In this document: one piece after another, positions 40,332 through 41,556 of the stretch | How the letters are laid out: the number at the start of each line of letters is the position of its first letter | How positions within the stretch are numbered: the first letter of the stretch is position 1 | Source: Escherichia phage MagusPhagus | Length of the DNA stretch: 54,396 bases | Sequence record: PP925836.1 | Strand: one strand, 5' to 3' | Program-made: the position numbers and the translations under genes | Notes under the pieces: generated by a model | The model's input: only the letters and a program-made list of their open reading frames with translations | What the model was told of the DNA's origin: nothing | The model's database searches: none

Positions 40332-40547
40332 TTATTCATCCTGCCTGAAGGCAACTACAACCTCGCGATCGTCATTCTGAATCAGCCACCAGCCGCGCGC
40401 TTTGCTGGGCGCTGCATACCATAAGTGACCGTAAGTATCCGTAACGACGATAAACGGATTTTTTGGTAATCCGCCTGGTTTTTCCGCTTCGTACTGGCAA
40501 CCGTCTTCGAAACAATCAAGATCAGATCCGTGACACGTTAAAATCAT
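40332..40547 (-). CDS. Paralogous small-protein family member A (71 aa)
   Basis: Shares the hydrophobic beta-strand / DxxG..W-aromatic pattern (VVTDTYGHLWYAAP) with neighbours. Confidence 0.45.
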   Translation of the reverse strand: MILTCHGSDLDCFEDGCQYEAEKPGGLPKNPFIVVTDTYGHLWYAAPSKARGWWLIQNDDREVVVAFRQDE

Positions 40548-40550
40548 TTT

Positions 40551-40799
40551 CTACGCCCCTACATACGAAAATGCAGCAAAAGCACCACCACCAGCACGCG
40601 CATAAACAAGCGCCGTGCCACACCCCATTTTATAAAAGCGCCATAGCTGGCCCTGGTCGTCAGTAATGGCGTGAATATATTCCTGATTCTTTGCGTCAAC
40701 CAATGCCGCGCCGACTTCGTAGATCTTGCCATTCTTAAAAAACGCGCTGCATCGTGAATACGTGCATTGATATCTATGATTCCGACTCATAACAACCAC
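40551..40799 (-). CDS. Paralogous small-protein family member B (82 aa)
   Basis: Pattern FFKNGKIYEV...ITDDQGQLWRFY. Confidence 0.45.
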   Translation of the reverse strand: MVVMSRNHRYQCTYSRCSAFFKNGKIYEVGAALVDAKNQEYIHAITDDQGQLWRFYKMGCGTALVYARAGGGAFAAFSYVGA

Positions 40800-41057
40800 C
40801 TATTCAGGTTTGCTACCTTCACGCGCATGAAGAACAGCGATCTCACGGAAATCATGCACGATGCGATAAATATACAAGCCAGCGGCGTTATTGATATGGA
40901 TTGCATAAGCGAAATAAACTTTATCGTCATCGCCAGTTATCGCCATTGCCACATCACCGCACGGTGCGCCGTGGAGTTGAACGCCGCAATAAATCTTCCC
41001 TTCTTCGAATCTATTGCGATCGCGCGTCTGCACTATCTCAAAATATAAATGCTTCAT
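40800..41057 (-). CDS. Paralogous small-protein family member C (85 aa)
   Basis: Pattern FEEGKIYCGV...ITGDDDKVYFAY. Confidence 0.45.
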   Translation of the reverse strand: MKHLYFEIVQTRDRNRFEEGKIYCGVQLHGAPCGDVAMAITGDDDKVYFAYAIHINNAAGLYIYRIVHDFREIAVLHAREGSKPE

Positions 41058-41066
41058 GCTTGCCCC

Positions 41067-41279
41067 TTAATAACGCACAAAACTAGCGGAAAAATCAGTG
41101 CCTGATATTTCGCCACCCCGATAAGTTGGCATAAATCCCCACACATCCCCACAATCATCAATCAATACAAGCGCCACGCCAACATCACTAATACCATTGC
41201 CATAAACGATGTGAACATCATAGATTCGCCCAATAGTGAAAACGCTGTCATTGCTTGAATATGAGCATTTAACTTGCAT
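41067..41279 (-). CDS. Paralogous small-protein family member D (70 aa)
   Basis: Pattern FTIGRIYDV...LIDDCGDVWGFM. Confidence 0.45.
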   Translation of the reverse strand: MQVKCSYSSNDSVFTIGRIYDVHIVYGNGISDVGVALVLIDDCGDVWGFMPTYRGGEISGTDFSASFVRY

Positions 41280-41556
41280 TGTCAGCCACCTTTAAATAAT
41301 TTTTCGTGTCAATATCTGCCGGATACCTGGAAAATTGCGCCAGCCATTGTCCGGTAATGTTTTTCACCAGTGCATAATCAAGATCGCCGCAGTAGAATAC
41401 CTGGTACATTGTCCCTTCGTTATCATCCATAACAAAGACCATCGGATCAGTAGTCGCATTGCGCAGCCTGTGAATCGTGTAGGCCTGGCCAGTAGTGAAT
41501 TTGTACTTGTTACACGTTGTGCGGCAAAACATCCGGTCAAAATAGCTTTCCATCAA
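41269..41556 (-). CDS. Paralogous small-protein family member E (95 aa)
   Basis: Pattern FTTGQAYTI...VMDDNEGTMYQVFY. Confidence 0.45.
   Translation of the reverse strand: MMESYFDRMFCRTTCNKYKFTTGQAYTIHRLRNATTDPMVFVMDDNEGTMYQVFYCGDLDYALVKNITGQWLAQFSRYPADIDTKNYLKVADNAS

Follow-up and report, generated by a model that had tools for sequence, protein, structure and literature searches.

Five tandem small genes between Q and the lysis genes of an mEp021-group coliphage are diverged copies of one family with a predicted SH3-like barrel fold

The window analysed here is the whole 54,396-nucleotide stretch of Escherichia phage MagusPhagus (sequence record PP925836.1), a temperate coliphage or prophage that belongs to the mEp021 (mEpimmI) group. 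All relevant genes lie on its minus strand. The interval of ~6 kb between the antiterminator gene Q and the holin gene is occupied by small genes, and within it the ORF list and the sequence revealed an array of five consecutive, close-packed ORFs at 40332-41553, termed A to E. The features of the region are as follows.

44381-45109, minus strand: antiterminator Q (PF03589)
41553-41804, minus strand: upstream boundary gene, 83 aa (phrog_38609), outside the family, present in all 14 genomes compared
41269-41553, minus strand: paralog A, 94 aa from ATG (ORF call)
41067-41279, minus strand: paralog B, 70 aa (ORF call)
40800-41057, minus strand: paralog C, 85 aa (ORF call)
40551-40790, minus strand: paralog D, 79 aa from ATG, with an alternative GTG at 40799
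40332-40547, minus strand: paralog E, 71 aa, last gene of the array
40268-40298 (about), minus strand: intrinsic-terminator-like hairpin directly downstream of E, read from the sequence
40091-40231, minus strand: downstream boundary gene, 46 aa (phrog_22232), outside the family, conserved, from RefSeq annotation of orthologs
38076-38276, minus strand: HP1-type holin (ORF and domain call)
37583-38155, minus strand: lysozyme (ORF and domain call)

The ATG of A overlaps the stop codon of the preceding upstream gene (TGATG), and 11 nt are shared by the end of A and the start of B. The first-pass annotation had placed five tandem small genes at 40332-41556. Their existence and place were confirmed, but the outer end was not: 41556 belongs to a TTG one codon upstream of the ATG of A. 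The 82-aa form of D likewise starts at an upstream codon (GTG 40799) and is probably too long; RefSeq orthologs take the ATG in both cases, and the D start used here follows that choice. A has an N-terminal YF extension and carries Y in place of the family W. C, the most divergent paralog, lacks the conserved Cys and also has Y instead of W. D is the sole basic member (pI 9.1), and charge is heterogeneous across the array (pI 4.2-9.1).

The hairpin downstream of E reads GGCAUUG-UUCCGG-CAGUGCC followed by GUUUUGUU, and a Rho-independent terminator is annotated at the corresponding position of mEp010, mEp044, and mEp554. A simple terminator scan missed it because of a G-U pair in the stem and an interrupted T run. 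A consensus promoter scan gave 15 sites (16 expected), i.e., no enrichment, and no convincing late promoter or promoter at the front of the array. Given the lack of an evident promoter of its own, the close packing of its genes behind those upstream, and the terminator at its end, the array is presumably transcribed by antiterminated early-right or late transcription. Between the array end (40332) and the holin start (38276) lie ~2 kb with 8-9 other genes and the terminator. The 2-kb array region showed 86-91% identity, over part of its length, to mEp010, mEp044, mEp554, and mEp013; of 5426 complete E. coli genomes, only 35 carried similar DNA. In the publication on this phage group, genes of this type are termed flexible or hypothetical, without discussion of paralogs (PMC11893012).

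The five genes had been proposed to be paralogs sharing a two-part motif, G-(K/R)-I-Y followed by D-D-x-G-x-(L/V)-W/Y. Pairwise BLASTP within the window was weak (B-D, 28% over 46 aa; C-D, 33% over 43 aa; others noise). The window sequences alone were thus insufficient to prove paralogy, and orthologs from relatives were therefore brought in. All minus-strand ORFs were extracted from the Q-to-lysis region of 13 related loci and clustered, and profiles were compared with one another by hhalign; 19 further ortholog groups from this region served as decoys. Clustering via intermediates put B, D, and E together with S3, S4, and S5, which occupy the same slot in other genomes. The linking pairs (B, D, S3, S4, and S5 mutually, and E-S4) reached scores of 26-87, and no decoy exceeded 23.4; the scores for B were 38.3 with S4, 36.0 with S3, and 26.3 with D. 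E joined only through S4 (36.8, 92%), its direct scores with B, D, S3, and S5 being 10-18, under the decoy maximum. BLASTP of an E ortholog against S4 gave 36% over 44 aa, and E is in register with all invariant columns of the six-type alignment.

Profiles of A, C, and a distant member, F (see below), were enriched with extra protein-database homologs; with these queries, the best decoys reached 15-17. A scored 38.3 against the core family (92%, 77 columns), and C scored 33.3 against D (83%) and 23.9 against the core. The plain family HMM gave A 18-19 bits, against a reversed-sequence decoy maximum of 8.5, and C a marginal 7-12 bits. In the alignment of B, D, E, and S3-S5, residues C9, S12, F18, Y24, D44, and W50 are invariant and G21 nearly so; these columns match both parts of the proposed motif. 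Across all five subfamilies (C numbering), F17 and Y23 alone are invariant, and G20 is nearly so. With hhalign scores above the same-region decoys and the motif columns in register, the proposed paralogy received statistical support from multiple alignment and profile comparison, the lack of which the first-pass annotation had named as grounds for rejecting it. These findings showed, at the level of profile comparison, that the five genes are homologous to one another and to three further same-slot cassette types in relatives. Judged from sequence, membership in one family is firm for B, D, and E and strong for A. That of C, which is marginal by the family HMM alone, is indicated by the profile-profile evidence together with a structure model.

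A sixth related copy, coupled to tail gene M, had also been suggested, and the corresponding features are:

20735-21100, minus strand: minor tail gene M (PF05939)
20538-20735, minus strand: distant member F, 65 aa (phrog_3249, E 1e-20); longest ORF from 20738

The longest ORF of F overlaps the stop codon of M by ATGA, and hhalign of F against the core gave 27.5-28.8 (69-74%, 55-60 columns), above a decoy maximum of 15.8, in agreement with the suggestion. By the family HMM alone F is marginal (8-9 bits, the noise level), and its candidate membership comes from the profile-profile comparison. Homologs of F with 40-50% identity were detected by tblastn in Rtp, Bas01, Rogue1, Jk06, and other T1-like phages (Drexlerviridae). 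The F homolog of Rtp is separated by 2.3 kb from the lysis cassette downstream of it, and in that phage a DUF7244 gene lies directly before the holin gene. The first-pass annotation further listed two paralog pairs. The pair at 38382/38555 (G and H) was borne out, since both match phrog_15318 and hhalign gave 93.5%; for 49425/49618 the pairing is plausible, on weaker grounds (BLASTP E 7e-5, 30% over 50 aa). G and H were tried as members of the barrel family and rejected (hhalign 8.8-14.3). Gene 38924-39184 (phrog_25234) scored 20.8-23.4 by hhalign and is joined in chimeras at a shared DDDGD, with noise only from the broad HMM; its membership is unproven.

A slot map of 14 genomes revealed eight cassette types, present in 0-5 copies per genome and always in the order [A | S3 | S4 | S5-S4]-B-C-D-E. 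Copy number was 0 in mEp021, 1 in mEp554, and 5 in both the window and strain 09-00049. For mEp010 the map gave two cassettes (S3 and D), and E-type sequence inside ORF 5331-5732 brought the number to three. Because the plaque-forming phage mEp021 has no copy at all, the array is dispensable for plaque growth on K-12. Homologs of B formed 20 clusters, all from E. coli.

Protein databases contained an in-register A-E chimera (P0065), an S3-E chimera (P0057), two fusions of S3 or A to the 38924 family at the common DDDGD motif (P0048 and P0155, the latter involving A), and further chimeras (P0050 and P0145). These chimeras show that recombination among the paralogs and neighboring genes deletes and reshuffles cassettes, giving rise to new combinations. 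The proposed tandem diversification of a small domain in an accessory region was thereby supported, with eight types in fixed order and 0-5 copies. By a crude NG86 estimate, dN/dS ranged from 0.05 to 0.23 for all types (A, 0.05; B, 0.21) and from 0.08 to 0.19 for neighboring genes. This similarity to the neighbors indicates that these are real, constrained genes, and every type is under purifying selection. Divergence of type B is focused in the central hairpin (dN 0.40 vs. 0.03-0.09 in the flanks) and is mosaic; since dS in the hairpin is high as well, it looks like allele exchange. Positive selection was sought by NG86, and dN/dS was <1 everywhere. No direct within-type signature of an arms race was seen, the orthologs showing purifying selection.

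An alignment of 25 sequences (types B, D, E, and S3) was used for the AlphaFold2 model of D (pLDDT 81, pTM 0.70), which had six strands and a long b1-b2 loop. The model of C agreed with that of D; because the alignment used for C mixed it with other types, this agreement is not fully independent. A Foldseek search of predicted viral structures returned many small uncharacterized proteins, mostly from Drexlerviridae, with TM 0.65-0.84. On the basis of these models, the five genes are predicted to be diverged copies of a standalone SH3-like six-stranded beta-barrel of ~65-95 aa.

Pfam and NCBIfam scans of the window proteins gave nothing significant, PADLOC-DB had no family at E ≤ 1 for any of ten proteins, and a profile search of PDB sequences returned chance matches only. 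Among PHROGs, phrog_31142 was matched by B (E 7.8e-7) and D (E 1.2e-5), with no match for A, C, or E, and phrog_4927 was matched weakly by A, B, and D. A, C, and E thus belong to no PHROG at a significant level, whereas F belongs to phrog_3249. All three PHROGs are labelled "unknown function" and are unlinked in that database; the divergent relative P0093 matches both phrog_31142 and phrog_3249 and bridges the two. No anti-defence annotation (anti-CRISPR, anti-RM, anti-CBASS, or others) was present among the Pfam, NCBIfam, and PHROGs matches, and a literature search on the PHROG identifiers found nothing. Assignment to a housekeeping phage family, which the first-pass annotation had named as the other outcome that would speak against its reading, did not result from these searches. 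The family has no Pfam model, and no description of it was found in the literature searched.

A profile search of 5.8 billion proteins retrieved E. coli and mEp proteins only. Exhaustive HMMER searches added the divergent small members P0077 (E. coli), P0093 (Salmonella arizonae), and P0098, and also proteins in which a single polypeptide contains the domain two or three times in tandem (P0095, and P0100/P0111, which come from a Herelleviridae MAG). The C-terminal stretch of P0100/P0111 appeared coiled-coil-like by eye. A search for related loci with P0093 found none. Long repeat proteins with 5-24 matched stretches, such as P0067, were also retrieved by exhaustive HMMER and were rejected: only the D-x2-G-x2-W hairpin part was matched, and we judged them to be beta-propeller/RHS-like look-alikes rather than homologs.

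The nearest relative by sequence is Pfam DUF7244 (PF23896, SH3 clan). Compared by hhalign with nine DUF7244 sequences, the core family gave 93.5% and a score of 37.3 (E 2.3e-7, 40 columns), against a decoy maximum of 18.0. A family HMM with divergent members added matched bas11_0041, itself a DUF7244 protein (92 bits), at 19.9 bits. The window proteins did not match PF23896, whose gathering score of 27 bits was not reached; it was matched by 2 of 21 family members (best E 0.065), and the distant relative P0100 gave 17.9 bits. These profile comparisons showed the array family to be a remote relative of DUF7244. The two have in common the pattern M-x-V-K-C...G-x2-Y...I-x-D-x2-G, and both comprise small standalone barrels of the cytoplasm, whose shell (non-universal) genes precede the lysis cassette. 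DUF7244 proteins, e.g., bas11_0041 (Bas11), rtp62 (Rtp), and gp14 (T1), have 56 aa and are encoded by a single-copy gene that adjoins the holin gene. In the array, by contrast, five copies of 70-94 aa follow one another ~2 kb from the holin gene, and the proteins have a longer b2-b3 hairpin and additional strands at the C terminus. DUF7244 stands beside the lysis cassette as a standalone SH3 in 188 of 522 Drexlerviridae genomes (PMC13164509, 2026).

By fold, the nearest characterized relative is Gp54 of phage Bas11 (PDB 9AXB). The models display the six-stranded beta-barrel with prominent b1-b2 loop of 9AXB, and the array proteins are predicted to have that fold. Homology to Gp54 at the sequence level was tested in three ways and rejected: the core and Gp54 families scored 10.2 against each other by hhalign, and no window protein matched PF25180 ("Phage antiviral trigger protein Gp54", gathering score 27 bits) at E ≤ 10, whereas the Bas11 Gp54 control scored 116 bits. 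Gp54 is a non-essential protein of rare barrel topology that binds CapRelSJ46 directly, clamping its pseudo-zinc-finger domain via the long b1-b2 loop and strands b2-b5 (PMC11578894). It is known as a trigger of this defence system; that it inhibits another defence is speculation by the authors of that study (PMC11578894). CapRelSJ46 activation is so specific that even proteins closely homologous to Gp54 fail in it (PMC11578894), and for this reason it cannot be assumed for the array barrels. Gp54 is also a single-copy protein of a lytic T1-like phage, whereas the array is tandem and belongs to a temperate phage. The match to SH3b cell-wall-binding domains and canonical SH3 domains was much weaker than that to Gp54, the array models having six strands rather than five. 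Unlike SH3b proteins, the array barrels are not fused to an endolysin and have no export signal.

The array proteins are thus of a known kind, the standalone SH3-like barrels of siphophage accessory regions (DUF7244 by sequence, Gp54 by fold); their tandem, cassette-like, copy-variable organization in a temperate phage sets them apart. Gp54 had so far been isolated, a rare barrel fold noticed only through its detection by an immune sensor. It can now be placed in a much larger set of small phage barrels, to which DUF7244, numerous Drexlerviridae proteins, and the array family also belong, the last of these present in up to five tandem copies in gut-prevalent temperate coliphages.

Each barrel may be a cytoplasmic binding module. 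This is suggested by the absence of a signal peptide, catalytic motif, or transmembrane segment, by the tandem repeats of the domain in single proteins elsewhere, by the heterogeneous charge, which would fit different partners, and by the loop-and-strand interface through which Gp54 acts. The conserved core (F-x2-G-x2-Y and D-x2-G-x2-W/Y) would build the barrel, and partner specificity would come from the variable b1-b2 loop, the b2-b3 hairpin, and the C-terminal strands, in parallel with Gp54. We tentatively propose, at somewhat less than an even chance, that the array is a set of SH3-like barrels whose partners during lytic growth are different host proteins, in counter-defence or host takeover. 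The genes would then form a battery of accessory factors, each acting on a different host protein, and the copy content of a phage would be shaped by the host factors and the barrel-recognizing immune sensors that its lineage has met. No homology-based link to anti-defence or host takeover emerged, as PADLOC, Pfam, and NCBIfam were empty and the PHROG matches functionless. The only named family related in sequence, DUF7244, has been proposed as a lysis accessory, which speaks against counter-defence. The structural part of the first-pass interpretation (tandem diversification of one domain in a variable region between Q and the lysis genes) therefore stands, and its anti-defence part was neither demonstrated nor excluded.

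A reading that we consider rather unlikely is that the array is a modular counter-immunity battery in which every barrel has its own immune sensor or effector of the host to bind and neutralize, or to serve as a decoy for. In that case, the opposing pressure from recognition of some barrels as triggers, as in the Gp54-CapRel interaction, would drive cassette gain, loss, and recombination. If this were true, the Gp54/DUF7244 barrel would be a general immune-interface fold used by temperate mEpimmI and lytic T1-like phages.

A function as lysis-module accessories is by analogy also conceivable, and we regard it as unlikely. The barrels would modulate the endolysin, holin, or spanin, or bind cell-wall peptides after the holin fires, and the paralogs would fit lysis to different hosts. 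The DUF7244 standalone SH3 proteins of T1-like phages have been proposed to help lysis (PMC13164509). That proposal was based on co-localization only (PMC13164509), and the array does not immediately adjoin the holin-endolysin-spanin cassette.

It is distinctly improbable that the proteins are associated with the virion or its assembly, as small decoration, ejection, or chaperone modules. Such a role is consistent with the translational coupling of F to tail gene M and with the gene just upstream of the array, whose mEp021 ortholog (mEp021_41, discussed in PMC11893012) is annotated as a virion structural protein. P0093 also weakly matches a "virion structural protein" PHROG (E 0.0014), and some Drexlerviridae relatives are annotated as putative minor capsid proteins. 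However, these supporting annotations are putative, the array lies outside the morphogenesis module, and copy number varies from 0 to 5, with mEp021 viable with none.

The genes might also be morons that benefit the lysogen, through superinfection exclusion or as decoys titrating incoming phage or host factors; we give this a slightly smaller chance than a virion role. Morons of lambdoid-type prophages classically cluster at this site, the array is followed by a terminator, and its content differs among prophages. Against this, the array has no evident promoter of its own (promoter-like sites, 15 vs. 16 expected), is packed behind upstream phage genes, and has no PADLOC match, and relatives occur in strictly lytic T1-like phages, in which a benefit to the lysogen is impossible.

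A chance or compositional similarity among unrelated ORFans, for which the weak BLASTP within the window and the noise-level scores of C and F by the family HMM alone might be cited, is very improbable and was disfavoured when tested for A, B, D, and E, given profile-profile scores above all 19 same-region decoys and the reversed-sequence controls, invariant motif columns in register, two structure models that agree on one rare fold, and recombinant chimeras that unite paralogs in register.

Natural phages with 0-5 cassettes (mEp021, mEp554, mEp010, and mEp044) provide a tractable system for the role of the fold as trigger, inhibitor, or lysis accessory. Through the analysis, several flexible genes of the mEpimmI pangenome so far labelled "hypothetical" also gained a fold and a family, and a further gene type was added, S4, which carries no annotation in the three examined RefSeq genomes that contain it.

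Family members and family-like genes were found in related genomes and in phage Bas11, in addition to the five paralogs (A-E) of the small SH3-like barrel array:

L006:4983-5189, L007:4768-4983 and L013:4499-4714, minus strand of each locus, 68-aa family member of the S4 type, one of the further types that occupy the array slot in relatives
L010:8225-8521, L012:8088-8324 and L013:8029-8265, minus strand, further family-like gene of some relatives
L004:4857-4979, minus strand, truncated B cassette (40 aa) of E. coli strain PAR
L014 (Bas11) 33759-33929, 37578-37943, 45147-45338 and 47216-47653, small proteins matching the family profile

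The reading frame of the S4-type gene was intact, and its dN/dS of 0.23 indicated purifying selection. The protein (cluster of P0071) occurred in >200 contigs of the protein collection. The gene is left without annotation in the RefSeq genomes of L006, L007 and L013. The family-like gene of L010, L012 and L013 sits between RusA and a 60-aa gene upstream of Q; it scored 16-19 bits by the family HMM, and all decoys scored lower. The window lacks this gene. The array of strain PAR is otherwise complete (A-B-C-D-E), and its B copy is decaying.

Scores of 12-20 bits with the family profile were obtained for bas11_0041 (DUF7244), bas11_0048, bas11_0071 and bas11_0079, with lower scores for reversed-sequence controls. 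Because multiple small Bas11 proteins match the profile, T1-like phages may carry several dispersed copies of the barrel. These matches are additional to Gp54, the Bas11 fold relative of the family. An exhaustive HMMER search also returned long proteins (P0067-P0070 and others; 700-3300 aa) with 5-24 matches each, in which the matched part was the D-x2-G-x2-W hairpin half of the profile. They are probably beta-propeller/RHS-type repeats, and such proteins are a source of false positives in searches with this family.

Other features were located in the window:

38301-38319, minus strand, strong terminator-like hairpin preceding the holin start by 25 nt
38924-39184, minus strand, 86-aa protein (phrog_25234) with an acidic C-terminus
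41553-41804, minus strand, conserved mEp021_41 ortholog directly upstream of the array
43582-43854 and 44178-44381, minus strand, pair of small genes closely following Q
19586-20437, plus strand, island of three small genes between F/M (F being the distant family member) and tail gene L

The 86-aa protein showed a family-like pattern, YKIRCKGEYPGFTTGHEY...LDDDGD, and hhalign gave 20.8-23.4 against B and the core (B/D/E/S3-S5) alignment. In database chimeras P0048 and P0155, S3 and A were fused to the family of this protein, with the junction exactly at the DDDGD motif. The protein may be a very distant family member.

The mEp021_41 ortholog and paralog A were translationally coupled. mEp021_41 is annotated as "virion structural protein" in mEp021 and has been likened to the RB69 RegA translation repressor (PMC11893012). 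At BLASTP E <= 1e-5 the two genes downstream of Q fell into one cluster, and they form another paralog pair, beyond those listed in the first-pass annotation. The cluster comprised 24 sequences, and 13 of the 14 sources (the window plus the loci) contributed to it.

A terminator is annotated in mEp021 and mEp010 at the site equivalent to the hairpin, which may be a tR'-type terminator of the late transcript. A late promoter was sought and not located. The island was oriented antisense to the tail operon, and one of its three genes encoded a KilAC antirepressor domain (PF03374).
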